Shown: positions 1-12,903, numbered from the stretch's first letter. The stretch is 12,903 nucleotides of DNA from a virus (IMGVR_UViG_2531839662_000018:1-12903); one strand, 5' to 3'. Numbers and translations are program-made. Notes: a model not told the origin generated them from the letters alone.

Positions 1-1242
1 ATGGCACGAAAAACCACCCCACTAACCATTACGGAGATCAAAAACGCACGACCAGGGGAAAAGGAATACACCCTGCAGGATGGTGGAGGATTATTTCTTC
101 TGGTGAAACCCTCCGGATCAAAAATCTGGCGTTTTACGTACTATCGCCCGGCAGATAAAAAACGGACTATCATCAGCCTCGGATCGCTGAATGATGTTTC
201 CCTGTCCGATGCCAGAGAACGACGGAATGAATACAGGTCACTCATAGCGAAGGGAGTTGACCCACAGGACCACGAACGCCGGAAACGTGAAGCAGAGAGT
301 CGGAAAAAGGGCAACACGTTCGAAAAAGTTGCCTCGGACTGGTACGAGATGAAAAAAGGCCAGAATCTGGCTTACAACACGATTAAGGATATCTGGCGAT
401 CCCTGGAAAAATACGTATTCCCGTACATCGGAAACACGCCAATAGATACCCTCACAGCTCGCCGCTTTGTTGAGATACTCACACCCATTAAAGCACGCGG
501 CAACCTGGAAACCCTGAAACGCGTTTTACAACGCATCAATGAAGTGATGGATTTTGCTGCCAACAGTGGGCTGATTGACATCAACACCGCCGCGAACGTC
601 CGCAAGGCATTCCCCTCACCCACCAAAAAGCACATGCCAACCATCCGACCGGAACAGCTACCGCAGCTAATGCACGATTTATCGGTCGCCAGCATAGAAC
701 GGCAAACCAGATTGCTGATTGAGTGGCAACTGCTGACCGTAGCACGCCCAGCCGAAGCAGCCGCCGCACGCTGGGAAGAAATAGATCTCGATGCCGAAAC
801 CTGGACGATTCCAGCCGGACGCATGAAGATGCGCCGTGACCATGTGATCCCTCTTTGCGGTCAGGCGATGGCTGTACTGGAAACAATGAAGCCAATCAGC
901 GCACACAGGGAACATGTTTTTCCCAGCCTTAAAAATCCAATGCTGCCAATGAGCAGCCAGACCGCTAACGCTGCATTGCGCCGGATGGGATACGCTGGTG
1001 TGCTGGTGTCTCACGGATTACGCGCCATATTCAGTACAGCAGCGAACGAGGAAGGATTCGAGCCGGACGTAATCGAGGCCGCACTCGCACACGTGGACAC
1101 GAACGAGGTAAGGCGAGCATATAACCGAAGTAACTACCTGGAAAAGCGCGTGGTGCTTATGCGCTGGTGGGGGGAATTTGTAGAGGCCGCAGCTACCGGA
1201 GTGACCATAGCCAGTGGTAAAAGGGGTATCCGTGCCGTGTAA
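1..1242 (+). CDS. int: P4-type tyrosine integrase/recombinase (413 aa)
   Basis: Full ORF from ATG at position 1. N-terminal arm-binding region with the DGGGL motif typical of P4-family integrases (KEYTLQDGGGLFLLVKPSGSKIWRFTYY). C-terminal catalytic region has HGLR, a later AHV, and the nucleophile Tyr in RRAYNRSNYLEKRVVLMRWW. Identified by eye from conserved motifs. Confidence 0.95.
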   Translation: MARKTTPLTITEIKNARPGEKEYTLQDGGGLFLLVKPSGSKIWRFTYYRPADKKRTIISLGSLNDVSLSDARERRNEYRSLIAKGVDPQDHERRKREAESRKKGNTFEKVASDWYEMKKGQNLAYNTIKDIWRSLEKYVFPYIGNTPIDTLTARRFVEILTPIKARGNLETLKRVLQRINEVMDFAANSGLIDINTAANVRKAFPSPTKKHMPTIRPEQLPQLMHDLSVASIERQTRLLIEWQLLTVARPAEAAAARWEEIDLDAETWTIPAGRMKMRRDHVIPLCGQAMAVLETMKPISAHREHVFPSLKNPMLPMSSQTANAALRRMGYAGVLVSHGLRAIFSTAANEEGFEPDVIEAALAHVDTNEVRRAYNRSNYLEKRVVLMRWWGEFVEAAATGVTIASGKRGIRAV

Positions 1243-1340
1243 CTGTACAAAAAGCCAGTGCAACCAGTGAAAACCATGCCAAACCATCGTATAATTGCCA
1301 CAAATTTAACGACAAGGCCGGAGTATATGAAAATTCTATT

Positions 1341-1571
1341 ATGCAAAATACCACCGCCTACGGCGAAGGCCTGCAACTGGCCTTAATGGCAAATCGTGAA
1401 TTCTGGTCAACGTACGATCCGGAAGACAAATCAACAGCCCCCACAAAACACGAGGTAGTCAGTTTTTTGCGCTCGCGTGGCGCATCGAAAAATCTGGCTG
1501 AAAGCATCGACAAGGTGCTGAGACCCACCAGCCTTAAATGCGGTGGACGACCTAAGAAGTGGAAGCGGTAA
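1341..1571 (+). CDS. hypothetical small protein (76 aa)
   Basis: Open frame between int and alpA with a protein-like, charged composition. Its stop is followed immediately by an intrinsic terminator. The ribosome-binding site is weak: the nearby GGAG (1319-1322) is better placed for a 19-codon ORF at 1327. A TATAAT hexamer lies at 1290-1295. Confidence 0.4.
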   Translation: MQNTTAYGEGLQLALMANREFWSTYDPEDKSTAPTKHEVVSFLRSRGASKNLAESIDKVLRPTSLKCGGRPKKWKR

Positions 1572-1576
1572 TCACA

Positions 1577-1607
1577 ATAGCGGCCCTTTGCGGTCGCTAT
1601 TTTTTTG
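1577..1607 (+). terminator. rho-independent terminator after the int / small-ORF unit
   Basis: A roughly 9-bp stem (ATAGCGGCC / GGTCGCTAT, one G.T pair) with a CTTTGC loop, followed directly by a T7 run (1600-1606). Confidence 0.6.
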
Positions 1608-1636
1608 CAAAAAGAAAAGCGTAATCAATGAGATAA

Positions 1637-1676
1637 AAAACAGTGGGTACCGTTTTAAAACGGTGGGTACTGTTTT
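1637..1676. promoter_or_regulatory. two tandem 20-bp near-palindromic sites upstream of alpA (candidate operator)
   Basis: AAAACAGTGGGTACCGTTTT (1637-1656) is followed directly by AAAACGGTGGGTACTGTTTT (1657-1676), 18/20 identical. In each unit the 8-bp arms are inverted repeats of one another. They lie about 65 bp upstream of the alpA start. Confidence 0.4.
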
Positions 1677-1741
1677 TCCCGCCCTGCCCTGTTTTACCGT
1701 ATTTATCACCGGAATACGCCGGATTAACGAGGTAAAACATA

Positions 1742-1948
1742 GTGGAAACAATCAGAAAAATCCTTACCCGTCAGGAAGTAAAAAATATTCTGCGCATCAA
1801 GGCAGACAGTTCGCTACAGGACATGATCAACGCCGGAAAATTCCCGAAAGGCTTCAAAATCGGTCTGCGTCGTGTTGGCTGGTATGAAGATGAGGTGCTG
1901 GCCTGGCTGAAAGAACGCGAGGAAGAAGCGCGCGGAACGGCTGCGTAA
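1742..1948 (+). CDS. alpA: AlpA-family (excisionase-like HTH) transcriptional regulator
   Basis: 68-codon ORF with a GTG start and a GAGGT Shine-Dalgarno about 10 nt upstream. The sequence fits the AlpA pattern (FPKGFKIGLRRVGWYEDEVLAWL), and int followed by alpA is the canonical order in these islands. Confidence 0.85.
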   Translation: METIRKILTRQEVKNILRIKADSSLQDMINAGKFPKGFKIGLRRVGWYEDEVLAWLKEREEEARGTAA

Positions 1949-1967
1949 TGGTGTGAGGCGTAACGCG

Positions 1968-2954
1968 ATGAACATAACAAAAAGCGCCCCGTTGCCGGAG
2001 CGCCTTTGTGAACGAATAGCCTACTGCGCCATATTGCTTACTGTCTACGAGGCAGATTATAGCGTTGTGGTCGCACAGAGTGAAGGCGCTGATCACCGTT
2101 ACTACAGCACGCCAGAAATGCAGAATATTTTGCTGCAAAATGCCGTTGGTCACGCCGTCCGGAAAGCAAAAAATTTTGCTGGTGGCGCGACTGATGCGAT
2201 TTTGTCAGGTCGCCAGGTGCTGATCAATCTGATGTCTGATTTCGTTCTGGATAAAACAAAGGCGACCGCAGAGAGCCGCCAGTGGAAAAGCTACATACTT
2301 GAACGCATCACCAACAATGCCACATTTGCGGCTGGTGGGCAAAGCGTAACCGGAAAAAAATTCCGGTGGGGCTATTCCTGCTCTTTGGCCTTGCGACGCT
2401 GGCGGTATTCAACTTCTCGCTTTAATGCTGCTGTTACAAACTGCCCTGTACTTTCACCAGGCATTTTTACCGCCTCAACATTGTTCATAACTTCATGCGG
2501 AACCCTTGCCGCAACTGTTTGTGATTTTGCGTTTACTGCTTTTGTTGCCATGTTGTGTACCCCTTACAAAAAACAAATGCAGTATGCAGGAAAAAAAATA
2601 AGTGTTCAACACTTGACGTGTTTAACACCAGGGCTTAAATTGGTGTTCAACACCTTACTGATGCAAGGTGCAGAAACGACGAAACCCGGCAGTGCGCTAA
2701 CACTAACCGGGCTTCTAACCACCAACGATAGAAAGCGTATCGAGGTAGCTATGAGAAATTATACCAGACACCCGCAAGGGCGGGACTCGTACAACCTGAA
2801 TAAATACATCTGGCGTTTTATCGCCCTGAGCACGGCACAACCGCGCGTGATTCACATCGTGGCCACCAGCGAACAGGAAGCACGCCAGCAATCCCCGGCT
2901 GGCTGCGTGATGGTATTCGCTGCCCGTATTCGCCAGGAGGTACGCCATGATTAA
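1968..2954 (+). CDS. long stop-free frame (328 aa from ATG 1968); probably a composite, not one protein
   Basis: The 5-prime 400 nt has a GAGG ribosome-binding site 9 nt upstream and coding-like, purine-rich first codon positions. The middle (2372-2654) reads as Cys/Ser/Thr/Phe-rich junk, is antisense to a well-formed RHH ORF, and contains three perfect palindromes plus a promoter. The 3-prime 204 nt (ATG 2751, GAGGT site) ends in an ATGATTAA overlap with the next gene. A gene finder would likely call the whole ORF; I consider that call doubtful. Confidence 0.3.
   Translation: MNITKSAPLPERLCERIAYCAILLTVYEADYSVVVAQSEGADHRYYSTPEMQNILLQNAVGHAVRKAKNFAGGATDAILSGRQVLINLMSDFVLDKTKATAESRQWKSYILERITNNATFAAGGQSVTGKKFRWGYSCSLALRRWRYSTSRFNAAVTNCPVLSPGIFTASTLFITSCGTLAATVCDFAFTAFVAMLCTPYKKQMQYAGKKISVQHLTCLTPGLKLVFNTLLMQGAETTKPGSALTLTGLLTTNDRKRIEVAMRNYTRHPQGRDSYNLNKYIWRFIALSTAQPRVIHIVATSEQEARQQSPAGCVMVFAARIRQEVRHD
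2372..2551 (-). CDS. ribbon-helix-helix (Arc/CopG-like) transcriptional repressor candidate, 59 aa
   Basis: Minus-strand ORF MATKAVNAKSQTVAARVPHEVMNNVEAVKMPGESTGQFVTAALKREVEYRQRRKAKEQE, below the ORF-track length cutoff. It has a beta-strand/helix/helix RHH pattern, an AAGGGG Shine-Dalgarno 8 nt upstream, and G/A-rich first codon positions, while the opposite strand looks antisense. It is transcribed divergently from the adjacent palindromic operators. Confidence 0.55.
   Translation of the reverse strand: MATKAVNAKSQTVAARVPHEVMNNVEAVKMPGESTGQFVTAALKREVEYRQRRKAKEQE
2601..2654 (+). promoter_or_regulatory. rightward sigma70-like promoter overlapped by three palindromic operators
   Basis: Palindromes AGTGTTCAACACT (2601-2613), GTGTTTAACAC (2618-2628) and GGTGTTCAACACC (2642-2654). 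Candidate -35 TTGACG (2613-2618) and -10 TTAAAT (2635-2640) with a 16-bp spacer. One operator sits just upstream of the -35, one in the spacer and one just after the -10. Confidence 0.55.
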
Positions 2955-3312
2955 CCTGTCAATTTCTGACCTTAACAGCATTCAGTTTGATGAGAAATTC
3001 ACCGGGCAGCTACTGGTTAACGTGGAGAATGGACGCGTGGCAAGTAATTATCACCTGCCGGATGGTGCAATTGCCGGAAGCGTTGAAGCATTGCTGGAGC
3101 TGGCAGAACGTGCGCGACTGATTAAGCCGTTAACGAGCCATCACGATGATGATCTGCATTTTACCGGACGCATGGTGAGTCACTACGAAAACGGCGTTGA
3201 AGTATCCCGAGAACGGCTGCGAGATGATTGCTGTTTCGGAACACTGCCGGAATTTATCGAATTGCTGACCAGTTGCGGTTATCAGGTTATTCAGGGGGTG
3301 AATCATGGATAA
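2947..3312 (+). CDS. hypothetical protein (121 aa); paralog of the next gene
   Basis: Strong AGGAGG Shine-Dalgarno 6 nt upstream. The start overlaps the upstream frame stop (ATGATTAA). Its N-terminal half resembles the downstream 66-aa protein. Confidence 0.75.
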   Translation: MINLSISDLNSIQFDEKFTGQLLVNVENGRVASNYHLPDGAIAGSVEALLELAERARLIKPLTSHHDDDLHFTGRMVSHYENGVEVSRERLRDDCCFGTLPEFIELLTSCGYQVIQGVNHG

Positions 3313-3505
3313 TCAGCAAGCAACAATGACAATTACCCTGAGTGTGCCAGATGATTTCACCGGACGCATACTGGTTTACCTGGATAAAGGGAAAGTGAAA
3401 TCACAATGCCGACTGAAAAGTAATGAGATTGTTGGTTCTCCTGAATTTTTTTCTGAACTCTGTATTCGTGCGGAAATAAAACCGGAACTGCTGACAGGAA
3501 AATAA
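3305..3505 (+). CDS. hypothetical small protein (66 aa); paralog of the N-terminal half of the previous gene
   Basis: Overlaps the previous gene by 8 nt, with a GGGGGTG ribosome-binding site. The two proteins share an alignable block (DDFTGRILVYLDKGKV ... IVGSPEFFSELCIRAEIKP versus DEKFTGQLLVNVENGRV ... IAGSVEALLELAERARLIKP). Confidence 0.7.
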   Translation: MDNQQATMTITLSVPDDFTGRILVYLDKGKVKSQCRLKSNEIVGSPEFFSELCIRAEIKPELLTGK

Positions 3506-3509
3506 AACC

Positions 3510-3809
3510 ATGAAAAAGAAAAATTCTGGCTTTACTGCCAGTGGTCTCCCTCGGCCTGAAATCCGCCCCGGCGATATTTTCCGGGATAACTACGGCGGCA
3601 CGGTAACGATTAAAAGTATTGCCGGACGGTGCGTTACTTACCGCCGTGATGGGTACAGCTACGACTGCGTGATGCCTGTTTATCAGTTCCGGCGTGATTT
3701 TTCACTGATACAGGCCACACCACGCAAACAGCCCACCAGCAACGCAAAGGCACGGGCAAATATTCAGAAAATGAAAAACATGATTAACGCATTCAGGGGC
3801 ACAAAATGA
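3510..3809 (+). CDS. hypothetical protein (99 aa)
   Basis: Tightly packed in the operon; its stop overlaps the next start (ATGA). No family recognised. Confidence 0.7.
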   Translation: MKKKNSGFTASGLPRPEIRPGDIFRDNYGGTVTIKSIAGRCVTYRRDGYSYDCVMPVYQFRRDFSLIQATPRKQPTSNAKARANIQKMKNMINAFRGTK

Positions 3810-5221
3810 AACTGGCACCGAACTTAAAAAAACAGCCACACGACAAAATGACCGAAGTCATTATTTTTGCGGGTAGTGATGCCTGGGCGCACGCGAAACA
3901 GTGGCAGGAGCAGGACGGGCGACTTGCTGGCGACAACGTGCCGCCTGTATGGCTGGGAGACAGCCAGCTTGACGAACTGGCAGACCTGAAAATTATCGAC
4001 GATGGTCGCTATTGTGTCCGGCTGTACAAGGCAGGCCACATCAAGCCGTCAAATATTAACGCCATCGGGCAAAAGCTGGCGGCGGCAGGTGTACGGGATG
4101 CGAATTATTACCCCGAGGGAATGCACAGCCAGAAACGCGAGGAGTGGCGCGAATATCTGGAACGAGAGCGCCAGAAAAGACTGTCCGGAGAGATACCAGA
4201 GGAAGAAAAAAACGACCAGCGAAAAACCACACTGCCAATGAGTATTGGATCTGCAGGGTACGACACACAGCTTGATTATGTCGTTAAGGGCGTGATTCCG
4301 GCTAATTCATTGTGCAGCACATACGGCGCGAGCGGTTCCTATAAATCGTTCCTCGCGTGTTCCTGGGCGTGTCATGTTGCCACGGGTCGCCACTGGGGAG
4401 GCCGCAGGGTGGCGCATGGTTCGGTGATGTATGTCGTCGGTGAAGGTGGCATTGGTGTCCCTCGTCGTATCAAAGCATGGGAAATCGTTAATGATGAACG
4501 GGTGAAAAATCTGTACCTGGTAAACCGCCCGATTTTTCCGGCGGTCCCGCTTGATGTTGATGAAATGGTCATCGCTTCCCGTCAGGTTGAACGGGAAACG
4601 GGTAAACCGGTACGCATGATTATTCTGGATACGCTGGCGCGTTGCTTTGGCGGTAATGATGAAAATGACGCGCGGGATATGGGGGCGTTTATCCGTGGAT
4701 GTGACGAACTGAAACGACGCACAGGGGCTACGGTACTGGTGGTTCACCATTCCGGCAAGGATGAAACAAAAGGGGCGCGTGGTTCCAGTGCATTTCGTGC
4801 ATCTCTGGACGCTGAATACCGTATTCGCCGTGAAGGTGCGGACAGTGAAGCCCTGGTTATCTCCTGCACCAAAATGAAGGACGCGGAGGAACTGAAAGAG
4901 GCTGCATATGATTTACGCGTGGTGGAGCTTTTTACCGACACTGACGGGGAGTTAATCACGTCGCTGGTGGTTGTGGATAAGCCGCGCCCACCTGTTGAAC
5001 TGGAACGCATCGAGGAGGCCGGGAACAAGACGGAAAATCACGCTGCGCTATGGCAGTGCATCAGAACGCGAACAGCACACGGGGAGGCGTGCACTATCGC
5101 CCTTCTCCGCGATGATATGAAAAAGCTGGGGTATGAAATGAAAAACTTCCGGCGCTGGCTGTACAAGCTGGAAAGCGACGGCGTAATCGCTATTGACGGT
5201 GATTATGTGCGCCCACTGTAA
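3806..5221 (+). CDS. replication protein with RepA-like RecA-fold helicase/ATPase domain (471 aa)
   Basis: P-loop-like YGASGSYKSF, Walker-B-like MIILDTLARCF and the LVVHHSGKD motif typical of RepA/AAA_25-type replicative ATPases. The N-terminal domain of about 160 aa is of unknown type. The gene is followed immediately by an iteron array. Confidence 0.85.
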   Translation: MKLAPNLKKQPHDKMTEVIIFAGSDAWAHAKQWQEQDGRLAGDNVPPVWLGDSQLDELADLKIIDDGRYCVRLYKAGHIKPSNINAIGQKLAAAGVRDANYYPEGMHSQKREEWREYLERERQKRLSGEIPEEEKNDQRKTTLPMSIGSAGYDTQLDYVVKGVIPANSLCSTYGASGSYKSFLACSWACHVATGRHWGGRRVAHGSVMYVVGEGGIGVPRRIKAWEIVNDERVKNLYLVNRPIFPAVPLDVDEMVIASRQVERETGKPVRMIILDTLARCFGGNDENDARDMGAFIRGCDELKRRTGATVLVVHHSGKDETKGARGSSAFRASLDAEYRIRREGADSEALVISCTKMKDAEELKEAAYDLRVVELFTDTDGELITSLVVVDKPRPPVELERIEEAGNKTENHAALWQCIRTRTAHGEACTIALLRDDMKKLGYEMKNFRRWLYKLESDGVIAIDGDYVRPL

Positions 5222-5612
5222 AAAGTGAGGAGCAAAAGTGAGGATGGCGGGTAATTTAACAAAAAATCAACGCCACTCCTCACTTTCTCACCTGTATATA
5301 GGTCAAAAAGTGAGGAATGAAAAACATATTGTAAAACAAGACATTACAACAACAAGAAAAACAGGTGAGGAGCAGGACGGGAATAACAAAAAGTGAGGAA
5401 CAAAAGTGAGGAATGGTGAGTTAATAGAAATGAGGTAATAAAAATAACAGGTAGGTTAAAAAACACACCATGCAAGATATTAACTAAAACTTAACTATTT
5501 ACCTCACTTTTGCGTATATATAAGGATTAAAAAGTGAGTACTTAAAAATACATTTAAAATCATATTGTTATTAACTTCATAAATTTTCACTGTGCAGCAG
5601 GTGAGGAATTAA
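5221..5612. repeat. iteron array / candidate replication origin
   Basis: At least nine copies of the core AAAGTGAGGA, with CAGGTGAGGA variants, in both orientations (for example 5221-5232, 5235-5245, 5278-5287 reversed, 5305-5319, 5361-5372, 5387-5399, 5402-5415, 5501-5510 reversed, 5598-5610). They are embedded in AT-rich DNA with no ORF, directly downstream of the rep gene. Confidence 0.75.
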
Positions 5613-5687
5613 AAAATCAGGAATGTTAAAAATGAAAACAGAATGTTGTGTCAGTGCCGTTGGGCAACGTAGCAATCAGTAAAAACG

Positions 5688-6230
5688 ATGGGGCAAAGCA
5701 TGACTAAGCTGACCATTAACAGAAAACCTAAAGGCATTTACGGCACGCCGCAGAAAACGACGCAGGCGGCGCAGGAGCAGGATAAAACCACGTCGGCGCA
5801 TAAAGTGATGCCCGGTAACCAGAAAGCGCAGCAGAAGCCCACAGGGGCGACACCGTGGCGGCATATGACCAAACGCCAGCGCAAAAACCGCAGGCGCGTT
5901 AACCGCCTTATCGAACTGTGGCCAGAATTATTCAGCCGGGAAGCACCGAAGCCGCTTAAGGTGGGGATATTTGACGACCTGATGCAGGATCTCGCCGTCA
6001 GGGGGCTGGCATTCGGGCCAGGGGCATTACGTGCGACGCTGGCATCTTATGCGCAGTGTCCGCGCTATTACCGCGCCTTAATGGCTGGTGGGGTACGCTA
6101 CGACCTGAAAGGCCAGCCGTGCGGCGAGGTGACACCACAGGAACAACAGGACGCAGAAACGCGGCTGGTGGCGCTGAATGAGAAGCGCAAACGTCAGCGC
6201 CGGGCAGCAAAGGAGAAAACAGGCGCATGA
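5688..6230 (+). CDS. ProQ/FinO-domain RNA-binding protein
   Basis: The central region (PLKVGIFDDLMQDLAVRGLAFGPGALRATLASYAQCPRYYRALMAGGVRYDLKGQPCGEV) matches, from memory, the conserved ProQ N-terminal/FinO domain. Basic Lys/Arg-rich N- and C-terminal tails. An alternative start at ATG 5700 has a better GGGG ribosome-binding site. Confidence 0.85.
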   Translation: MGQSMTKLTINRKPKGIYGTPQKTTQAAQEQDKTTSAHKVMPGNQKAQQKPTGATPWRHMTKRQRKNRRRVNRLIELWPELFSREAPKPLKVGIFDDLMQDLAVRGLAFGPGALRATLASYAQCPRYYRALMAGGVRYDLKGQPCGEVTPQEQQDAETRLVALNEKRKRQRRAAKEKTGA

Positions 6231-6514
6231 TTCACGACAGCAAAGCGGAAGCACTGGAAGCGCGTGGTCTGTACCGGAGAGCGGCGGCGCGGTGGGCTGA
6301 GGTCATCATGCTGGCGAATGATGACAAGGCACGGGAACAGGCGGCAAAACGTCGCGCGGAATGTATCCGCAAGGCAGCACGCCCACCAGCACGGCAGGAT
6401 AATTTCGGGGAGATGCGCGAAACCATCAGCCGGGCACATGCCGGGATGGGATTACATCAGCCCAATGGTAAGGCATTCAGGAAATACCCTGGATCGAAAA
6501 ATTGCAGTCAGTGA
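6227..6514 (+). CDS. PerC-like small transcriptional regulator candidate (95 aa)
   Basis: The start overlaps the previous stop (ATGA). The N-terminus (KAEALEARGLYRRAAARWAEV) resembles the conserved opening of PerC-family regulators, recalled from memory without alignment. Basic, Arg-rich protein. Confidence 0.6.
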   Translation: MIHDSKAEALEARGLYRRAAARWAEVIMLANDDKAREQAAKRRAECIRKAARPPARQDNFGEMRETISRAHAGMGLHQPNGKAFRKYPGSKNCSQ

Positions 6515-6519
6515 CGGAG

Positions 6520-6544
6520 GCCGGGATTTTTCCCGGCTTTTTTG
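6520..6544 (+). terminator. rho-independent terminator 1 after the ProQ/FinO-PerC unit
   Basis: 7-bp stem GCCGGGA / TCCCGGC with a TTTT loop, followed by TTTTTTG. Confidence 0.75.
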
Positions 6545-6555
6545 TGCCAGTAAAA

Positions 6556-6590
6556 AGCCCGCAGCCAGAAGTGTTGCGGGCTTTGTTTTT
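6556..6590 (+). terminator. rho-independent terminator 2 (tandem)
   Basis: 8-bp stem AGCCCGCA / TGCGGGCT with an 11-nt loop, followed by TTGTTTTT. Confidence 0.7.
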
Positions 6591-6715
6591 CAGGTGATTG
6601 AAGTCAATGGGAAGAACGCGATCATCATGCGTTATTGTTTCATAAATTGCAATGATGTAGATCGTCATTTCAGTTTGTGCAATCATAATCGTTGTTTTGT
6701 TCAGGAGATATGACT

Positions 6716-6889
6716 ATGAGAAAAGCCAGCGTGAAACCCGTTTTACTCGCTCGTGAGCAGATTGAAGCATTACAGCGCATCCAGGACGAGGAACGCCGCA
6801 ATTCTCCGCTGGGGATTGCTCCGAGCATTCATGAGGTCGCCCGGCGTTTAATGCAGCGGGCGCTTTATCCCGTAGAACGTCCGGCCTGA
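6716..6889 (+). CDS. hypothetical small protein (57 aa), first gene of the downstream operon
   Basis: ATG at 6716 with an AGGAG Shine-Dalgarno (6703-6707, 8-nt spacing). The ORF-track start at 6692 lacks a ribosome-binding site. An AT-rich promoter-like region lies at 6600-6700. Confidence 0.55.
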   Translation: MRKASVKPVLLAREQIEALQRIQDEERRNSPLGIAPSIHEVARRLMQRALYPVERPA

Positions 6890-6928
6890 TGGTCGTGATT
6901 TTTTGGTGAAAAAAGAGAGGTGGTAACA

Positions 6929-7513
6929 ATGCCAGCAAGCAAAGAAGATTTGCGATTAAAACTGATGGAGGTGGTTAACGCTCTGTCAGAGTCGCAGGGC
7001 AGCACTCCGCAGGAGATTATCGAAATTCTGAATGCGATCCCCGCACAGGATTTCACAAAAGCAGATGAGGACAACGCGAATCAAAACATCGTCGCGTCAG
7101 TCGAAGATGAATCCTCACTGGCAGAAGCCCAGGCTAAAGCAGATTCCGCATACAGCAATATGGGCCGTCGCGCTCCAGCCCCGTTTGCTGGTGAAAAGTC
7201 GATGGATTACCGCAAGCGTGCATTAATTGGTGCACAGAAGCTGGCTAAAAAATTCAGTGATGTGGATATTCGTTCCGTTTCAGATTCTGCAACGCTGGCG
7301 GTGCTGGAAGATCAGATTTACCAGGCTGCAAAAGACAGTGTTCAGTGGGCCGTGGAAAACACGCCGGGCCATTTGGGTAAAACCGTAAGAATGGATGAAG
7401 CTGGTCGTCGTATTACTGAATATCAGGGCGATCCGAACGTCTGGCTGAACGCCTTCAAAATCCCTCCCCGTCGCCTGGTCAAAATTAACACTGCAAGCCT
7501 CGCGGGGGCATGA
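6929..7513 (+). CDS. hypothetical protein (194 aa)
   Basis: ATG at 6929 with an AGAGAGG ribosome-binding site 8 nt upstream; the ORF-track start is a GTG at 6920. Acidic N-terminal half. No family recognised. Confidence 0.75.
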   Translation: MPASKEDLRLKLMEVVNALSESQGSTPQEIIEILNAIPAQDFTKADEDNANQNIVASVEDESSLAEAQAKADSAYSNMGRRAPAPFAGEKSMDYRKRALIGAQKLAKKFSDVDIRSVSDSATLAVLEDQIYQAAKDSVQWAVENTPGHLGKTVRMDEAGRRITEYQGDPNVWLNAFKIPPRRLVKINTASLAGA

Positions 7514-7577
7514 AAAACGTGCTGAGTTCAGCCCTGCCGGATTTGGCGGGGCTTATTGCTTATAACCGGATAACATT

Positions 7578-8249
7578 ATGCTTTTAACAGAAATTGAGGC
7601 GGCAAAGCAGATTCGGGACGGTCAGCTACCGTCGCCTTATCAGTTTTCCAACATGTGGCTGGTTAACCTGCGTATTACAGGAACCGGTATGGCCTACCGC
7701 GCCGAAGAAAAAGAATTTGTCTGGCGTTCACCGCAAACTTATCTCAATCCGCAGTTCCTGGAACGTTGCGCCGGAGTACCCGTCATTATCGACCATCCCG
7801 AAGGCAAAACCATTGAAGACGTTGGCGAACGGTCGCGCATTATTGGCACCGTCATGTTGCCGTATATTCGCGGTGACGAGGTGTGGGGTGTATGCCGGAT
7901 TTACGGGCAGGAAATCATCGATTACATCCAGAAAGCACGGGGGGAGGTATCCACCAGCCCGTCGGTTGTGTTTTGTGGTGCGTCCGGTGGGGCAGAAGTT
8001 CCTGATGTAATGGGCGAGGACAATTTTTTCATTGAGGGTACGCCATTCCTTATCGATCACGTTGCGCTCGTGCCGCTTGGTGTTTGGGATAAGGGCGGGA
8101 AACCATCGGGTGTGGAGGTAACAACGCCGACAGCAGAAGAACAGCTCGCCGGAATGGTCCGGGACGTTATTGATGCGGCCTGCAAGCCAGCCCTGGAAAA
8201 ACTGGAAGAAATATCCGGGCGGCTGGCTCAACTGGAAAAAACAGAGTGA
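7578..8249 (+). CDS. hypothetical protein (223 aa)
   Basis: Protein-like composition; only a weak ribosome-binding site. A faint resemblance to phage prohead-protease-like folds (PVIIDHPEG ... IGTV ... EVSTSPSV) is too weak to call. Confidence 0.75.
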   Translation: MLLTEIEAAKQIRDGQLPSPYQFSNMWLVNLRITGTGMAYRAEEKEFVWRSPQTYLNPQFLERCAGVPVIIDHPEGKTIEDVGERSRIIGTVMLPYIRGDEVWGVCRIYGQEIIDYIQKARGEVSTSPSVVFCGASGGAEVPDVMGEDNFFIEGTPFLIDHVALVPLGVWDKGGKPSGVEVTTPTAEEQLAGMVRDVIDAACKPALEKLEEISGRLAQLEKTE

Positions 8250-8256
8250 GTGAATC

Positions 8257-8874
8257 ATGAAAATTGCTAAAAACTTAAATCTGATTATCCCTGTGCGCAC
8301 TGAAAAGGGAAATGGCTGGATCCATGCCACGCCGATCAGCAAAGAGGTGTTTAAAGAGCATTTCTTCATCCTGAGTAAAACCTTTTCTGCCATTTTTTCT
8401 GAAGGTCTTGGTGTTGTTGCGGGTCCGCGCGTTGCCTGCCTTATGCTGGAGAAAATCTCCCGTGACTCCGGTTTATGGGATGGGGAGAAAGGCATACGTA
8501 ATACGCTCATAAACGAAATTATTCGCCTGGCAAACCTTGTTTATCCAGTGGAGGGCAAAGGCTACGACACAATCCCTCTCGATATGGCGCTGGAGCGTGA
8601 AATCGTTGATTTGGACGAAGTGGCGGGTGAACTTGTTTTTTTTACATGCGTCTCGTCGATAAATTCCCCGGAGCAGACGAAGGGGACTATGGATGCGGTG
8701 AATGGAATATGGAGCACTCAATGCTCGTCCTTGAGTCTTACGGAATGGATCGCTTCATTGCCGACATTGAAGCCTGCCGTCAGTTCTGGCGCGACGGCGA
8801 ACACGTCATCAGCGACATCCTCGACTACTCAGCCGGAGCCGGATTCAGAGACATCTGTGCAGATTCCGGTCTGA
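8257..8874 (+). CDS. hypothetical protein; zero-frame product 205 aa, candidate upstream partner of a -1 frameshift pair (G-like)
   Basis: The first 129 codons are protein-like. After the T8 run (8636-8643) the zero frame becomes Ser/Thr-rich low complexity until its stop at 8874, while the -1 frame carries a well-formed ORF. Confidence 0.6.
   Translation: MKIAKNLNLIIPVRTEKGNGWIHATPISKEVFKEHFFILSKTFSAIFSEGLGVVAGPRVACLMLEKISRDSGLWDGEKGIRNTLINEIIRLANLVYPVEGKGYDTIPLDMALEREIVDLDEVAGELVFFTCVSSINSPEQTKGTMDAVNGIWSTQCSSLSLTEWIASLPTLKPAVSSGATANTSSATSSTTQPEPDSETSVQIPV
8636..8643 (+). other. T8 homopolymer forming a U UUU UUU slippery heptamer (candidate -1 programmed frameshift site)
   Basis: Zero-frame codons GTT TTT TTT ACA. 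A -1 slip re-pairs both tRNAs on TTT and continues as TAC ATG into the frame of ORF 8646-8939. Confidence 0.4.
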
Positions 8875-8939
8875 ATGTAAAAACAGCAGCTCAGTTTCGT
8901 GAGCTGCTCAAATTCAAAAATCCCGCAGGAGTATTGTAA
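8646..8939 (+). CDS. -1 frame ORF (97 aa from its first ATG), probably the C-terminal extension of a frameshift fusion (GT-like)
   Basis: This frame opens at 8631 just before the slip site. Its stop overlaps the start of the 679-aa gene (TAATG). Protein-like composition (FIADIEACRQFWRDGEHVISDILDYSAGAGFRDICADSGLNVKTAAQFRELLKF). Internal ATGs at 8709 and 8721, the latter with a GGAG ribosome-binding site, allow independent initiation as an alternative. Confidence 0.5.
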   Translation: MRLVDKFPGADEGDYGCGEWNMEHSMLVLESYGMDRFIADIEACRQFWRDGEHVISDILDYSAGAGFRDICADSGLNVKTAAQFRELLKFKNPAGVL

Positions 8940-10978
8940 TGTCAGGTAATCAGATGCCAGTTCTAACGCTGGACGTTAATGAAGAACACCTCAAACGGCT
9001 TGAGGCAATTTTTGAAAAGTATCGCAACGGGCTGATGATCGGCCCTGCCGGAACGCCGATGAAAATACCGGGGCAAAGTGGGCGCAGCGTGGGGGCAGGC
9101 TTACCCGTGGCGGCAAAATCTGGTCGGACAGGACCGGATGTATCCGGGAGAGTGAGGGACGAAAAAGGGCGCTTTGTCGGCAGCGGAAAAACAGCAGATT
9201 CGTTCGTAAGCAACTATAAAGGTCGCGGCGAAACGATGTTTGATAAGTATCTCAGCGGGCTGGGGAAAAATGCCCAACAGACGCTGAAAACTTACAAGCA
9301 GATCAATTCTACACTACAGACGACCACTTCAAGATTAAACAACCTGTTTAAAACAACCGTATCGTGGGGAACAAAACTCTCGGTTATGGGCGTTGCCGGA
9401 CCGTTTGGCTTTGGCATGATGTCCCGTAGTGTTGTAGAGAAACAGAAAAATGCAGATGAGCTGGTGGCAACGCCAGGAGAGTTAAAGGCGGCAGAAAGCA
9501 CTTATTCGCCTTATTTTTCCGGTGTTGGCAATGTGCTCAATACACTGGCAGCAGCACAAAATGATATATCGCATCCTGCCCGCGTCGGCCTGCTTAATCT
9601 GGGGCTAAATCCTGATAAAAACGCGACTGAAAACCTGCCTGTATTCCTGAAAAAGGTTGCAGCGCTGGCAAAGGAATATCAGGGAACTGGTCTTACCCAG
9701 AGCAATTTCAGAGGAATGGGGCTTGGATGGGTAAATTTTGGTCTTACTAACCAGTTAGTCAAATATCAGGACAAAATACCTGAACTCAACAAAGAGTTTT
9801 CGTTACGTGCAGCGCAGAATGATTCGTTACTGACCTCTGCACATACAAGTAAATATCAGAATCTTACCAGTAACCTGGAAAAAAACTGGGATCGGCTTAC
9901 CAGCGGATTTCAGGGAGCAATGGCGGGGAATGAAGACGCTTTAATCAGAATGTCTGATGGTACCACGAATGCTGCCCTGAATTTCATGAATGGTGAGAAC
10001 TTTAAAAGGATTCTGACTGATGTTGAAACGGGGCTGGATAAACTTGGTAAGTACGTTAATGGCCCGGATTTTAATAACGACCTGAACAATTTTGCCGAAA
10101 ACGTTGCAAAGGTCACCAAGGCACTTAGCGGATTTGTTGGTTTTGCCGTTGAACATCCCTGGCTTTTTGGGGCCGCAGTGCTTGCGGGGCCATCAAGAGT
10201 TGGTGCCGTGGCAGCCACAACAACCGGAGTTGCCGCTCGTGTTGTCGGTGGAAGTCTTCTTGGGGCTACAGCCGGAACAGTAGCAGGATTGGCTATTCCT
10301 ACAAATAACACACCTACCACCAGTGAGGAAATGAAAGGGCTGGAGGGGCGTTTCAACTTTGATTATTTTAACGAAGTGCAGGAGTGGCAAAAAAACAATC
10401 CGGGTAAGGTCTGGCCTGGAGGATTGCAGGGATTTTCAAATCAAGTAAACAGATCTGCATATTTATCCAGAGGGATCAGGAATAACAATCCCGGAAATCT
10501 TAATTTCGCAGGACAAAAAGGGGCTACTCTGGAATCGGGGCCAAATGCCCGTTTTGCCAGCTTCCCGACGATGCTGGAAGGCATTGCCGCCTTAGATCGG
10601 CAGGTAATGCTATACCTGAAACGCGGCAAAAATACGATTGATCAGATTATTGATATTTATGCCCCTTCATCTGATGGAAATAACACATCGTCCTATAAAA
10701 GCTATCTTTCTCAGTACACCGGATTAGGTGTTAAGGAGAAAATTGATGGTTCTAATTTTGAGGTCATGAAAAAGCTAATTCAGGGCATTATTAACCATGA
10801 AAATGGTGCTGCCGCTAAAGCTGTAAGTGTTGAAGATGTGATCCGGGCGCTGGCTATGAATCGTGGGATTGTCCCTGCAGCAGGAAACAATGATCAGAAC
10901 GTTAAGTTGGAAATTGTTCGGAACGCTGGTGCCGATTACTTCGCGCAACTAATTGGTGCTCAACGGTTCCTGGGATGA
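8939..10978 (+). CDS. large protein (679 aa) with Gly/Ala-rich hydrophobic core; tape-measure-like candidate
   Basis: Strong AGGAG ribosome-binding site, coupled to the upstream ORF. An Asn/Thr/Gly-rich N-terminal 400 aa. A hydrophobic segment FAVEHPWLFGAAVLAGPSRVGAVAATTTGVAARVVGGSLLGATAGTVAGLAIP (nt about 10143-10300). A C-terminal domain of about 220 aa containing the motif RGIRNNNPGNL (nt about 10471-10503). Confidence 0.9.
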   Translation: MSGNQMPVLTLDVNEEHLKRLEAIFEKYRNGLMIGPAGTPMKIPGQSGRSVGAGLPVAAKSGRTGPDVSGRVRDEKGRFVGSGKTADSFVSNYKGRGETMFDKYLSGLGKNAQQTLKTYKQINSTLQTTTSRLNNLFKTTVSWGTKLSVMGVAGPFGFGMMSRSVVEKQKNADELVATPGELKAAESTYSPYFSGVGNVLNTLAAAQNDISHPARVGLLNLGLNPDKNATENLPVFLKKVAALAKEYQGTGLTQSNFRGMGLGWVNFGLTNQLVKYQDKIPELNKEFSLRAAQNDSLLTSAHTSKYQNLTSNLEKNWDRLTSGFQGAMAGNEDALIRMSDGTTNAALNFMNGENFKRILTDVETGLDKLGKYVNGPDFNNDLNNFAENVAKVTKALSGFVGFAVEHPWLFGAAVLAGPSRVGAVAATTTGVAARVVGGSLLGATAGTVAGLAIPTNNTPTTSEEMKGLEGRFNFDYFNEVQEWQKNNPGKVWPGGLQGFSNQVNRSAYLSRGIRNNNPGNLNFAGQKGATLESGPNARFASFPTMLEGIAALDRQVMLYLKRGKNTIDQIIDIYAPSSDGNNTSSYKSYLSQYTGLGVKEKIDGSNFEVMKKLIQGIINHENGAAAKAVSVEDVIRALAMNRGIVPAAGNNDQNVKLEIVRNAGADYFAQLIGAQRFLG

Positions 10979-11029
10979 TTTAAATACACGCGCTTTCCGG
11001 CGCATTAATACAGTCTGAGGGGAAGTGTC

Positions 11030-11554
11030 ATGTTTATGAGCAAGGCAGAATATGCCAAACACAAAGGCGTAAGCCGCCAGACAGTTTACGACTGGATCGA
11101 GAAAGGCGAAGTGGTCATGTCCGGTAAAAAAATCGATGTGGAAGCGACAGAGCAGCGGAACAGCCCACCAGCACAGGGAAAAGATACCGTTTCTGAAATG
11201 TGGCCAGAGAGAACGCTGGAAATGACGTGGGGCGAGTTCTGGAAAGCAGTTAAGGCCAGAGACGGTAAAATCCCTGCACCAGTAACGGACGATGACATAC
11301 AGCAGCGTGTGCAGGATGCAGCCGGGGAATTATGCTGTGAAGTGCAATTTCTTGATGATGGTGCTATCTGCCTTGAGGATTATGCTGGGCAATATTACTT
11401 TGAGCAGTATGATTTTCGGGAAAATGCCAGGCTGGCAATTCGTATGCTGCGTTGTGAGCTCTGCTATGTTGCAGGTGATTGTCCCGATGAGCTGGATAAC
11501 TGGAGTGAAGCCGGACTAAACGCCCTGGCTGAGTGGGAAAAATCATCCCATTAA
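11030..11554 (+). CDS. HTH DNA-binding protein (174 aa), excisionase/terminase-small-subunit-like N-terminal HTH with Cys-rich C-terminal domain
   Basis: GAGGGGAAG ribosome-binding site. The N-terminus (KAEYAKHKGVSRQTVYDWIEKGEV) is a classic HTH of the Xis/AlpA/TerS-Nu1 type. The C-terminal half has six Cys (CCEVQF ... CLEDY ... CELCYVAGDC). Confidence 0.8.
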   Translation: MFMSKAEYAKHKGVSRQTVYDWIEKGEVVMSGKKIDVEATEQRNSPPAQGKDTVSEMWPERTLEMTWGEFWKAVKARDGKIPAPVTDDDIQQRVQDAAGELCCEVQFLDDGAICLEDYAGQYYFEQYDFRENARLAIRMLRCELCYVAGDCPDELDNWSEAGLNALAEWEKSSH

Positions 11555-11565
11555 TGACCGTAAAA

Positions 11566-11857
11566 TTCGCGAAAAGTGTCAAGTCAGGCCGTCTGCCGGG
11601 TTGACACTTTACACTCTGAACGCGAAAAAGTGTCAACCTCGCTGTAAACCCCGCCGTTACTGGCTTTGCGCCAGATTTACCACGTCAAAAAGCCGAAAAA
11701 ATCGCGAAAAGTGTCAAGTTGCCATGCTTAGAAATGCTAAGGTTTGATAAGGTTTTTCGCGAAAAAGTGTCAAGTGTGTCAACCTGCGATGTTAAGGTTT
11801 GTTAAGGTCTTAAGCCGGAAAGTGTCAACCAGCCCCCTAAGATTTCCTAAGGTGTAA
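11566..11857. repeat. array of two interleaved short repeat families (candidate protein-binding or packaging/origin-like site)
   Basis: Family 1 is CGCGAAAAGTGTCAAG and variants (11566-11584, 11621-11638, 11702-11720, 11757-11784, 11817-11830, plus an inverted copy TTGACACTTT at 11601-11610). Family 2 is (C/T)TAAGGT(T/C)T in six copies (11738-11757, 11791-11814, 11836-11857). The region has no ORF. Confidence 0.7.
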
Positions 11858-11860
11858 ATC

Positions 11861-12040
11861 ATGACCATCACCGAAGCCGATATGCTGGAGATGATCCGCA
11901 GCATTGCCGGAATCAGACAACCAGCAAGCAAAATTAACAGGTGTTCAGCGCCTGTTTCCGTTGTGCTGCAACAGGAGCGCCACCAGCATGATGATGTGAG
12001 GCCGTATCAGTGGCGGAAACCGGACAGGCCGCGACGGTGA
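11861..12040 (+). CDS. short paralog (59 aa) of the terminal gene, with an internal deletion
   Basis: MTITEADMLEMIRSIAGIRQPASK ... RPYQWRKPDRPRR. Both ends are homologous to the 94-aa protein at 12619-12903 by eye at DNA and protein level, but about 40 central residues are missing. It has an AAGGTG ribosome-binding site and is below the ORF-track cutoff. Confidence 0.45.
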   Translation: MTITEADMLEMIRSIAGIRQPASKINRCSAPVSVVLQQERHQHDDVRPYQWRKPDRPRR

Positions 12041-12148
12041 GCGGAGCGTTCGGTAAGGCTACAGCCAAGCCTTACATTAAGCCTACGGGTAACCCTTCGA
12101 AGGGGCTTTAAAGGGGAGATGATTATCCTTACCCGTTGATAAACAAGC

Positions 12149-12168
12149 AAACCTCAAATTTGAGGTTT
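12149..12168. promoter_or_regulatory. perfect 20-bp palindrome AAACCTCAAATTTGAGGTTT (one of a pair)
   Basis: Perfect inverted repeat. A related copy AAACCTCGATTTGAGG lies at about 12349-12364, roughly 200 bp downstream. Confidence 0.4.
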
Positions 12169-12466
12169 GTATCTGCCTGACTTATTTTTGTGCTAAGTTG
12201 TTGATATATCCGACGACGCAAAATTGCGCTGGCTACATCCCTCACATCTGAGGACTGTTAACCAGCAGGCCGGAATATATTCACAAACTACGAAATTTTC
12301 GCAGTTTAATTACTCGCCAGCTTAATCGCTAACCCACTGATATTTTCGGAAACCTCGATTTGAGGAGACCGGAACGTCTACATGACTGCATCACCATAAC
12401 GATTTCCGTTACAGTTGATGTGCTTTTTTGCTGGTAAGGCCTAACCCGTTGATTCTTCCACAATTC

Positions 12467-12518
12467 CCCATTGGGGGAGGCTGGGCGGCCTGCTGTGGAC
12501 TTTTCCACCATTGGTGGG
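12467..12518. promoter_or_regulatory. pair of related palindromes upstream of the terminal gene (candidate operator)
   Basis: CCCCATTGGGG (12467-12477) and CCACCATTGGTGG (12506-12518) share the core CCATTGG, with centres 40 bp apart, about 100-150 bp upstream of the ATG at 12619. Confidence 0.4.
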
Positions 12519-12618
12519 AAACATGGCACCACATCCACCAGCTTAAACGCGCTTCACCTTCCCGTTATCAGTCGCCACAATTACGGCATTGTTTCCCCAT
12601 CCTCTGGAGGCCATGACA

Positions 12619-12903
12619 ATGACCGAAGCCGAAATGCTCAAAATGATTCGCCAGATTGCCGGGATCAGACCACCAGCAGGCAAACAGGAGGCCACGCAGC
12701 CGGACAGCGTGATAGCCGAAAATTACGCGCGTGTGGTGGCTGAGGTGATGCGCCGTGACGGTATCGAGCTTAACGGCGTTGATATGCGCGACATACGAAT
12801 CAGAGTTCTGGAGATGTTGTCATATCGTCGCCGCGTGGAGATGTACCGGGAGAGCGAGAAAAAGACTTACCAGTGGAAAAAACCGGAGCGGCTGCGTACG
12901 TAA
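12619..12903 (+). CDS. hypothetical small protein (94 aa)
   Basis: ATG at 12619 with a GGAGG Shine-Dalgarno at 8-nt spacing; the ORF-track starts at 12589 and 12613 lack a good ribosome-binding site. Highly charged, protein-like sequence (MTEAEMLKMIRQIAGIRPPAGKQ ... KTYQWKKPERLRT). The stop is the last codon of the window. Confidence 0.75.
   Translation: MTEAEMLKMIRQIAGIRPPAGKQEATQPDSVIAENYARVVAEVMRRDGIELNGVDMRDIRIRVLEMLSYRRRVEMYRESEKKTYQWKKPERLRT

Follow-up and report, generated by a model that had tools for sequence, protein, structure and literature searches.

Among the satellites described so far, helper-dependent transfer of the phage-inducible chromosomal island (PICI) EcCICFT073 is experimentally established, and its packaging depends on Rpp and cos (PMC6092414, PMC6739421). 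Vibrio cholerae PICI-like elements (PLEs) were shown in 2026 to produce chimeric tails with their own tape measure protein (TMP) and tail assembly chaperone (TAC), a baseplate hub being present in PLE11 and not in all PLEs (PMC12987554); some capsid-forming PICIs (cf-PICIs) have been reported with putative tmp genes (PMC12987554, Extended Data Fig. 10), and a 2025 preprint described a TMP in mycobacterial satellites (PMC12822802). The SatelliteFinder models for PICIs and cf-PICIs forbid tail genes, and the PICI model also forbids a holin (PMC10085698). No described classical PICI with a protease/scaffold/TAC/TMP module was found in open-access papers and bioRxiv. The stretch analysed here, IMGVR_UViG_2531839662_000018:1-12903 (12,903 nucleotides; hereafter the window), matched positions 2651638-2664540 of the porcine enterotoxigenic Escherichia coli (ETEC) strain UMNF18 (NZ_AGTD01000001.1) at 100%, and contained nearly all of an island of ~13.45 kb. 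Judged from its gene content, this element is a PICI of the EcCICFT073 family, and not a P4-like satellite, a capsid-forming satellite or a prophage fragment. Its morphogenesis genes make it probable, with appreciable room for doubt, that it is a variant remodelling both the capsid and the tail of its helper phage.

Assignment to the PICI class followed from the backbone, because six of its proteins were homologous to those of EcCICFT073 (coordinates from the supplement of PMC6092414), namely YlcI (61% identity), the Icd-like protein (89%), the DUF4222 protein (68%), the N-terminus of the replication protein (66%), PerC (53%) and the product of the last open reading frame (ORF; 70%). Both elements fell into the 11-13 kb size class and shared the order int, alpA, divergent ylcI/icd-like operon, DUF4222 gene, rep, iteron origin and perC, followed by a helper-like structural slot, a winged-helix packaging protein (a candidate in the present island) and a final phrog_1561 ORF (Table 1). 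A sequence-only reading of the window had proposed a phage-inducible island or satellite from a P4-type int, alpA and a rep gene with iterons; all were recovered where it had put them (Pfam, NCBIfam and repeat analysis), and the homologies to EcCICFT073 (53-89%) supported the class. The island also had a size within ~10-15 kb, a specific att site with direct repeats, int at one end, alpA and the remaining genes co-oriented with int (ylcI excepted), and its own replication protein with an iteron array immediately 3', a putative origin predicted from sequence whose position fits the PICI convention (PMC6092414). The ylcI/ynfO gene (2372-2551, 59 aa), divergent from the icd-like operon, was the sole credible gene on the minus strand, so the one-directional architecture that had been proposed held for all credible genes except this one. 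The FinO/PerC module singled out by the same reading was present (5688-6514), and proved to be a standard accessory feature of E. coli PICIs, among which PerC is a known accessory gene (PMC6092414), rather than a peculiarity of this island. No holin or lysin gene was found, but a tail chaperone and a TMP were present; these tail genes depart from the operational definition of PICIs, not from the biological one.

Several traits separated the island from EcCICFT073. The EcCICFT073 integrase was only 25% identical to that of the island, and its att site is ycfD-phoQ instead of proL; it encodes a primase where the island encodes a RepA helicase, the N-terminal 110 aa of the island Rep being common to both (tblastn). 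The structural slot of EcCICFT073 holds capsid and decoration homologs with RppA, whereas that of the island held a protease, a capsid-targeting domain, the TAC, the TMP and the protein o174. EcCICFT073 carries two exact copies of the lambda cosN and the island none, and its helper is lambda or phi80, whereas the candidate helper of the island is a headful-packaging myovirus. With cf-PICIs (bioRxiv 10.1101/2022.09.08.507074), the island shared a PICI-type left arm and a prohead protease, which was the only one of their head genes present: a major capsid protein, portal, head-tail adaptor/connector and large terminase (TerL/HNH) were missing, and the island therefore cannot make its own capsid. 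Of the P4 set (sid, delta, psu, epsilon/ash and the alpha primase with int and alpA), only int and alpA were found. The earlier statement that recognisable P4 sid/delta/psu and capsid-forming head genes were lacking was thus upheld by Pfam and PHROGs.

The P4-family integrase beside a tRNA gene and the phage structural genes are also compatible with a decayed Rac-type prophage remnant or a P4-like island, and a ProQ/FinO protein and a peptidoglycan hydrolase domain are known on conjugative elements as well, as would suit a conjugatively mobilised island. Any of these origins in place of a PICI is very improbable, as the gene order and the six backbone genes matched EcCICFT073. Moreover, just four genes were helper-like, two of them split and reordered and all under purifying selection; the hydrolase domain lay inside a TMP collinear with a phage TMP; and no family match was obtained with Pfam or PHROGs for a major capsid protein, portal, large terminase, sheath, tube, holin, sid/delta/psu, relaxase or type IV secretion system.

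The four morphogenesis genes all had homologs in one phage type, including a Rac-site myovirus prophage of the same genome (TAC 86%, TMP 88-89%, protease 53%, C-terminal domain 59%). When phage genomes were searched for distant DNA similarity, two records were returned, of which PP818812, 'Actinobacillus phage vB_Apl-pPE4', matched at 89% over 2.2 kb. Its 47.5 kb genome is that of a complete myovirus in which the matching genes lay between the sheath/tube genes and the baseplate hub; because of this tube-chaperone-TMP position, the matches to gp55 and gp56 were identified as chaperone and TMP. Of 5426 complete E. coli genomes, 81 contained the pPE4 head-to-sheath region at ≥80% coverage, and UMNF18 was one of them (1706659-1716849; 99.3%). 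The UMNF18 locus was a complete-looking Rac-site prophage with intR, xisR, recET, kilR, lysis genes, TerS, TerL, portal, gp46, capsid, sheath, tube, chaperone, TMP, baseplate and fibres. Its TMP (WP_000918395; 686 aa) was 87.8% identical to that of the island (WP_000016442) over the full length, and the chaperone-TMP DNA of the two was 89.3% identical over 2634 nt. The chaperone/tape-measure-like block suspected in the sequence-only reading (8257-10978) was thus confirmed, at 89% DNA identity to myovirus and resident prophage genes; the prohead protease and the capsid-targeting domain had gone unrecognised.

These two head genes, o223 and o197, corresponded to the two halves of a single phage protein. 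In pPE4, gp46 (440 aa) lay between portal/MuF-like genes and the major head protein and matched head-maturation-protease PHROGs. Island o223 was 53% identical to its N-terminal 228 residues, with an assemblin fold and the conserved His/Ser/His positions, and residues 42-191 of o197 were 59% identical to its C-terminal 145 residues (tblastn for both). In the island the halves were separate genes in reversed order, and the ~70-residue Ala/Glu/Lys-rich linker was missing. NCBIfam gave no match for the five morphogenesis/packaging proteins, and a PDB profile search with the DUF2213 alignment picked up only NUDIX domains fused to some relatives. Many metagenomic DUF2213 relatives of o223 carried such an N-terminal NUDIX hydrolase domain (340-370 aa in total), which probably explains the PGAP name 'NUDIX hydrolase' on some o197/gp46 homologs.

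The TAC gene possessed the organisation of a G/GT chaperone at the sequence level, being directly upstream of the TMP gene with a slippery T8 run (8636-8643) and an overlapping -1 frame (open between 8631 and 8939, a TGA at 8628-8630 preceding it); a -1 frameshift on T8 is predicted to give a 227-aa GT fusion. The G-frame product (205 aa) was 86% identical to gp55 and the overlapping 97-aa frame 79% identical to the corresponding alternative frame in the phage. Both the T8 run and the alternative frame were kept in all eight copies inspected (three islands, five phages), and an island-specific patch was located right after the slip site.

The TMP was compared between three islands from three integration contexts (UMNF18, STEC346 and TUM1881) and five phages. 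Residues 1-501 of the island TMP were 89% identical to gp56 (tblastn), and residues 508-638 matched a phage endolysin (PDB 7q47) and the N-terminal domain of the virion protein Gp29 (9vvp), at a position equivalent to that of an SLT domain in pPE4. Phage TMP cores were of two types, just 45% identical to each other, and the island cores were ~95% identical to type A. The terminal segments behaved differently. The N-patch (residues ~41-80) was 100% identical among the three islands and 29-34% identical to any of the five phages, whose own N-patch was 83-100% conserved across both core types; the C-tail (last ~35 residues) was 100% identical among the islands and 32-39% identical to any phage, all five phages having the tail motif PGSDI[LV]AQLAG[TM]QQIPG. 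A tblastn search of 50,697 phage records with the island-type C-tail gave no real match, a weak result as the collection has two phages of the group. Synonymous divergence (dS) from the resident prophage TMP was patchy in the core (0.06 to 0.45), with its lowest value, 0.057, in UMNF18 residues 201-300, and saturated in both terminal segments. From these sequences, patchy core dS and distinct ends are read as ongoing exchange of the core with helpers combined with retention of satellite-specific ends.

Among island copies, the ratio of nonsynonymous to synonymous divergence (dN/dS) was 0.07-0.17 for the TMP, 0.07-0.15 for the protease, 0.10-0.21 for o197, 0.22-0.47 for o174 and 0.06-0.10 for the chaperone (UMNF18 copy against the other two); near-identical pairs with 3-4 differing sites were left out, their ratios being uninformative. 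On these ratios, the morphogenesis genes are maintained genes under purifying selection, not decaying remnants. This evidence bears on the alternative that the island is a PICI in which the chaperone/TMP block, perhaps along with the genes for the protease and the C-terminal domain, is passenger DNA recombined from a helper with no role in the particle. The 89% nucleotide identity to the resident prophage with its very-low-dS patches would fit such an origin, as would the optional nature of the block: sister islands L011 and L013 were without it, and among 14 genomes in which the TMP-to-o174 junction was found, 11 had true TMP-bearing islands and three (cq9, U90 and ETEC1738) had the protease gene joined to the last part of the TMP gene, for which reason they were taken as deletion derivatives. 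Likewise, no phenotype or role in interference was detected for the capsid and decoration homologs that fill this slot in EcCICFT073 (PMC6092414). We nevertheless consider the passenger explanation unlikely, given the low dN/dS (0.06-0.17) with all frames and the frameshift site intact, TMP ends that were fully conserved between islands inserted at different att sites even as the core recombined, and the independent TMP and hub configurations in other genera described below.

The Rac-site contractile-tailed headful prophage is likely to be the helper of the island. The scaffold/protease module occurred in 34 of the 5426 complete genomes, at least 20 of which also carried the phage, compared with ~0.5 expected by chance (hypergeometric P ~3e-29, without correction for shared ancestry). 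Its terminase, with a Terminase_2 TerS and a T4-like TerL N-terminus, is by these sequence features of the headful type. No description of phage Rac-SA53 was found in open-access papers and bioRxiv. Several islands of the family were integrated at the abgR-smrA site, ~8-30 kb from the Rac site (cq9, NZ_CP031546.1 2328881-2337796 versus 2367429-2377619; also loci L006 and L009), a closeness that could be relevant to in situ (lateral) packaging.

Further observations were made on this phage. PP818812, whose recorded host is A. pleuropneumoniae, carried recT, exoVIII, kil, dicA and ydaT, and prophages of the 81 complete E. coli genomes, among them E. coli W and assemblies labelled DH5alpha, matched its head-to-sheath region at 95.6-99.6% identity. 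By appearance it belongs to the Rac family of E. coli phages, and its host label may be wrong. The UMNF18 prophage encoded, just upstream of the holin genes, a typical moron position, a scabin-related ADP-ribosyltransferase and a subtilase-family AB5 toxin B subunit (locus L008, 16655-17873). A gene between TerL and a MuF-like gene (L008, 23507-24943; equivalents in 80+ genomes) was named 'anti-CBASS protein Acb1 family protein' by PGAP and matched Pfam Phage_portal_3 at the portal position, so that the Acb1 name is likely a misannotation or reflects a fusion.

The packaging candidate o174 occupied the position of RppA in EcCICFT073, and the part common to both proteins was a 25-residue helix-turn-helix alone (40% identity). 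Six exact copies of AAAGTGTCAA lay directly downstream of its gene, against a chance expectation of ~0.025 copies in the whole window. All five E. coli islands with o174 that were examined had the same arrangement, and the motif also occurred downstream of o174 relatives of 37-58% identity in other genera; it was absent from the prophage, EcCICFT073 and the SA53-3 island (L007). From this distribution we infer that o174 binds the array, and by analogy its role is most likely to direct the helper terminase to island DNA. Packaging of the Rpp type through a lambda-type cosN was rejected, the lambda and phi80 cosN being absent from the island.

Homology, conservation, co-occurrence and analogy together suggest a mechanism of small-capsid redirection, chimeric tails and o174-directed packaging. 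Induction of the helper would switch on AlpA and the rightward operon, and the island would excise and replicate from its iteron origin with its own RepA helicase. The late operon would then supply four helper-derived morphogenesis proteins, among which o197 and the separate o223 would replace the single protease-linker-scaffold protein of the helper and probably drive assembly and maturation of smaller capsids, fitted to a genome ~28% the size of that of the helper. The chaperone (G/GT) and TMP would be built into otherwise helper-made tails, giving chimeric tails whose satellite-specific TMP ends may confer specificity or resistance, and, by analogy with Rpp, o174 would bind its six AAAGTGTCAA sites and bring the helper terminase to the DNA of the island. 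The whole of this cycle, with its protein roles, carries the same qualified probability as the capsid- and tail-remodelling reading itself.

Other systems offer partial precedents for these steps. As in PLEs, the TMP and tail chaperone are encoded by the satellite and the (candidate) helper has a contractile tail, and relatives of the island in other genera combine a TMP with a hub. No sequence relationship to PLE proteins was seen, backbone and host differ, and no Rta-like inhibitor was identified in the island; PLE tail proteins are ~20-41% identical to those of ICP1, whereas the island TMP is 88% identical to that of the candidate helper and differs mainly in two terminal segments. As with SaPI1 CpmA/CpmB and P2-P4 (gpO/Sid), in which the satellite genome is about one third of that of the helper (review PMC6893505), the island genome is small (28%), and o197 resembles SaPI1 CpmB in that a satellite protein carries the capsid-binding C-terminus of the helper scaffold, here as judged from sequence. 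Unlike SaPI1 and P4, the island splits a helper protease-scaffold fusion into two genes, reversed and with the long linker lost, and encodes a prohead protease of its own, which those systems do not.

Besides the optional block and the EcCICFT073 structural homologs without a detected role, already mentioned, further points weigh against the remodelling of capsid and tail. Relatedness among the porcine ETEC isolates inflates the co-occurrence statistic, and at least two module-positive genomes (STEC346 and RMDEC465) were without the phage. The island and helper TMPs were nearly equal in length (679 versus 657-693 aa), so a change of tail length is not the point. No sequence similarity was seen between o174 and the helper TerS, and its C-terminal domain gave no informative structural match; because of these two results, o174 could be purely a transcription factor. 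Searching the PDB with the o174 sequence or with an o174 profile gave nothing significant.

The same genes could instead serve mainly for interference or defence, the altered TMP, chaperone, protease and targeting domain poisoning the assembly of the helper or of related phages and so protecting the host population. Satellite tail-assembly blockers are documented: PICIs and P4-like elements have Tai (PMC11364771), and PLE11 has Rta (PMC12987554). Interactions with the hub or terminator could be blocked by the island-specific TMP termini, and a protease separated from its targeting domain could mis-process procapsids. Such a main function is improbable, since the tail-interference proteins known so far are small and bear no relation to structural proteins, a satellite needing helper tails would harm itself, and the conserved frameshifted chaperone argues for productive assembly. 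In addition, PADLOC found no defence family among ten small ORFs and no significant match for any island ORF.

Pieces of the window were found in 1964 of the 5426 complete E. coli genomes and at least 80% of it in five genomes only. The SA53-3 island (L007) shared the proL site and an integrase 99% identical, but had a different packaging module, whereas the STEC346 island (L006) had another integrase, att site (abgR-smrA) and replication protein, with the block from ProQ to o59 93-99% identical in protein; mosaicism of this kind is typical of PICIs. Because int, alpA and repA of the UMNF18 island resembled the SA53-3 proL island and the genes from icd through o59 resembled abgR-site islands, the UMNF18 island looks, from its sequence, like a recombinant of two PICIs. 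Compared with the STEC346 island, ~12229-13023 was an indel carrying the final ORF.

Relatives of o174 were surveyed in one genome per species and were found in PICI-like contexts in Escherichia ruysiae, Pantoea, Rouxiella, Raoultella, Serratia, Erwinia, Pseudocitrobacter, Lelliottia, Enterobacter and Mangrovibacter. In the Enterobacter kobei (L015; GCA_032579055.1) and Pantoea stewartii (L026) islands, a phrog_7694 TMP (673 and 632 aa, respectively) followed directly after the replication gene, accompanied by a phrog_196 homolog of the baseplate hub (45-49% identical to that of the phage), the C-terminal domain, the protease and o174. The Pantoea TMP had the C-tail motif GAD[YF]xAQLIG in common with the E. 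coli island TMP, at an overall identity of just 41%. Four separate loci with o174 relatives were present in P. stewartii ATCC 8199 alone (L018, L019, L024 and L026), at least one of them with a TMP, hub, scaffold-like domain and protease. A wider reading, which we put forward tentatively and hold to be possible rather than expected, is that an enterobacterial PICI subclass remodels the helper tail as well as the head through a TMP plus a chaperone (E. coli) or a hub (Enterobacter, Pantoea), the TMP core being kept compatible by recombination and the ends being satellite-specific; these ends might then mark satellite tails or resist some tail-targeting activity.

As the sequence-only reading had observed, the window began exactly at the int start codon, its first base being the A of the ATG; its other end coincided with the stop codon of the final island gene. 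The island lay between tRNA-Pro (proL) and yejO, with yejM and proL on the left (proL ending 210 bp upstream of int) and yejO on the right, and the same site was empty in K-12, where the tRNA was directly joined to the yejO-side sequence; the element is therefore a small autonomous island, in agreement with the sequence-only reading, and not an internal piece of a prophage. Comparison with the empty K-12 site placed attL at -223 to -207 and attR at 13223-13237, ~320-334 bp past the window end, and their common core was CTCTCGTGCC. The tRNA and the direct-repeat att pair anticipated in the flanks were thus found, both outside the window, in which a tRNA scan found none and a search for the core gave no copy. 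The right boundary, which that reading had tentatively put at 12040-12618 or beyond, lay beyond the window, and the structured region at 12040-12618 was ruled out. The junctions (marked by a slash) read ...CCTCTCGTGCCGACCAAA/TCGAAT... at attL and ...GAATACTCTCGTGCCAAA/AATCCCAAG... at attR, and the empty attB ...CCTCTCGTGCCGACCAAAAATCCCAAG...; attR was 4 nt (GACC) short of a simple duplication of the tRNA end, and because of this the exact crossover is uncertain within ~15 bp. The attP of the circular form is predicted to be approximately GAATACTCTCGTGCC(GACC)AAATCGAAT. Arm-type repeats TAGCTA[CT]ACG were found inside both island ends, those on the left lying with attL just upstream of the window.

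Table 1. Features of the 12,903-nt window and the basis of their assignment
Feature	Position	Strand	Basis
P4-family tyrosine integrase, 413 aa	1-1242	+	Pfam Arm-DNA-bind_3, Phage_int_M, Phage_integrase; NCBIfam PRK09692 full length, 560 bits
76-aa hypothetical protein between int and alpA	1341-1571	+	annotated coding sequence; 95% conserved in the SA53-3 island
AlpA-family regulator/excisionase	1742-1948	+	PF05930, E 4.5e-8; phrog_66 excisionase/regulator
YlcI/YnfO family protein, 59 aa	2372-2551	-	annotation; phrog_949; EcCICFT073 homolog
Icd-like protein, first gene of rightward early operon	2751-2954	+	annotation; phrog_6196; EcCICFT073 homolog
Three small early genes	2947-3809	+	phrog_340 paralogs (2947-3312 and 3305-3505); DUF4222 (3510-3809)
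RepA-type replicative helicase (AAA_25)	3806-5221	+	PF13481, E 3e-44; phrog_2850 and primase/helicase PHROGs
Putative replication origin, directly 3' of rep	5219-5613		five or six AAAAAGTGAGGA iterons; GC 0.34
ProQ/FinO-family RNA-binding protein	5688-6230	+	PF04352; NCBIfam FinO/ProQ
PerC-family activator	6227-6514	+	PF06069
Small protein (annotated from 6716)	6692-6889	+	annotation; kept upstream of morphogenesis/packaging genes across genera
o197, homolog of C-terminal capsid-targeting/scaffold-like domain of helper protease protein	6920-7513	+	phrog_6216 positions 402-545
o223, DUF2213 prohead protease domain, assemblin fold	7578-8249	+	homology to gp46
TAC (G frame 8257-8874)	8257-8939	+	homology to phage gp55
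TMP, 679 aa	8939-10978	+	phrog_7694, phrog_2276 (TMP)
TMP N-patch	~9059-9178	+	island-specific
TMP peptidoglycan-hydrolase domain	~10460-10852	+	structural matches (see text)
TMP C-tail	~10871-10975	+	island-specific
o174, winged-helix DNA-binding protein	11030-11554	+	at position of RppA; N-terminus with Xis/TerS/Rpp fold
Six exact AAAGTGTCAA sites, five direct and one inverted	11573-11828		directly downstream of o174, within ~260 bp; candidate array for o174 binding and candidate packaging site
o59 (11861-12040), truncated paralog of final ORF, then three stable hairpins (12040-12180)	11861-12180	+	phrog_1561; fold z -3.5
86-nt element	12435-12520		blastn 96.5% to EcCICFT073 (L005 11799-11884, near right end); 92% to a stretch of the SA53-3 island
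Final island gene, phrog_1561 family (annotated 12619-12903)	12589-12903	+	70% to last ORF of EcCICFT073, 95% to that of the SA53-3 island

Among the remaining features, the 76-aa protein between int and alpA had no family match in Pfam, PHROGs or PADLOC searches. The DUF4222 gene stood directly before the replication gene in all related islands examined, and in 9 of 20 census loci the small protein preceding o197 was encoded at a distance of 0.4-2.3 kb upstream of the o174 relative. The 5' ends of o59 and the final ORF were 82% identical over 73 nt, as paralogs. The 86-nt element contained GGGCGGCCTGCT, and the ORF beside the element was just 78% identical at the DNA level; the element had no significant fold (z -0.5) and no Rfam match, and may be a conserved cis-acting site. 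A 333-aa ORF (1953-2954) was rejected as a gene, having no family match and overlapping the annotated ylcI and icd-like genes, and a RefSeq 50-aa ORF (5244-5396), wholly inside the iteron/AT-rich region and also without a family match, is probably not a gene.

The region between ylcI and the icd-like gene possessed two 22-nt repeats (2596-2658) with an internal palindrome, GTGTTCAACAC, and a weak SymR-like covariance match on the minus strand (2678-2750; 32.8 bits versus a gathering score of 61). By analogy with the P1/P7 c4-icd loci, 2596-2750 may comprise an operator region and an antisense RNA. In a permissive Rfam scan of the island and its flanks, the flanking tRNA alone passed, the SymR-like, ncr1175-like and mir-like matches remaining far below their gathering scores, and the scan yielded no known RNA partner of the ProQ/FinO protein.

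It was only recently that a satellite, the PLE of Vibrio, was shown to manipulate tails (Nature 2026, PMC12987554); the island would extend this idea to classical E. coli PICIs, and through its candidate helper it would show that E. coli PICIs exploit headful myoviruses besides lambdoid cos phages. The splitting of a helper protease-scaffold fusion is suggested by the island as a new route of capsid redirection, and the analysis specifically predicts that the satellite specificity of the TMP resides in residues ~41-80 and the last ~35. In practical terms, satellite and candidate helper occur together in a sequenced, culturable strain, and natural variants with and without the tail block exist. 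Finally, the rules of satellite detection that forbid tail genes are likely to constitute a blind spot, and a tail-remodelling subclass may have been systematically missed because such genes serve as exclusion criteria in current satellite finders.

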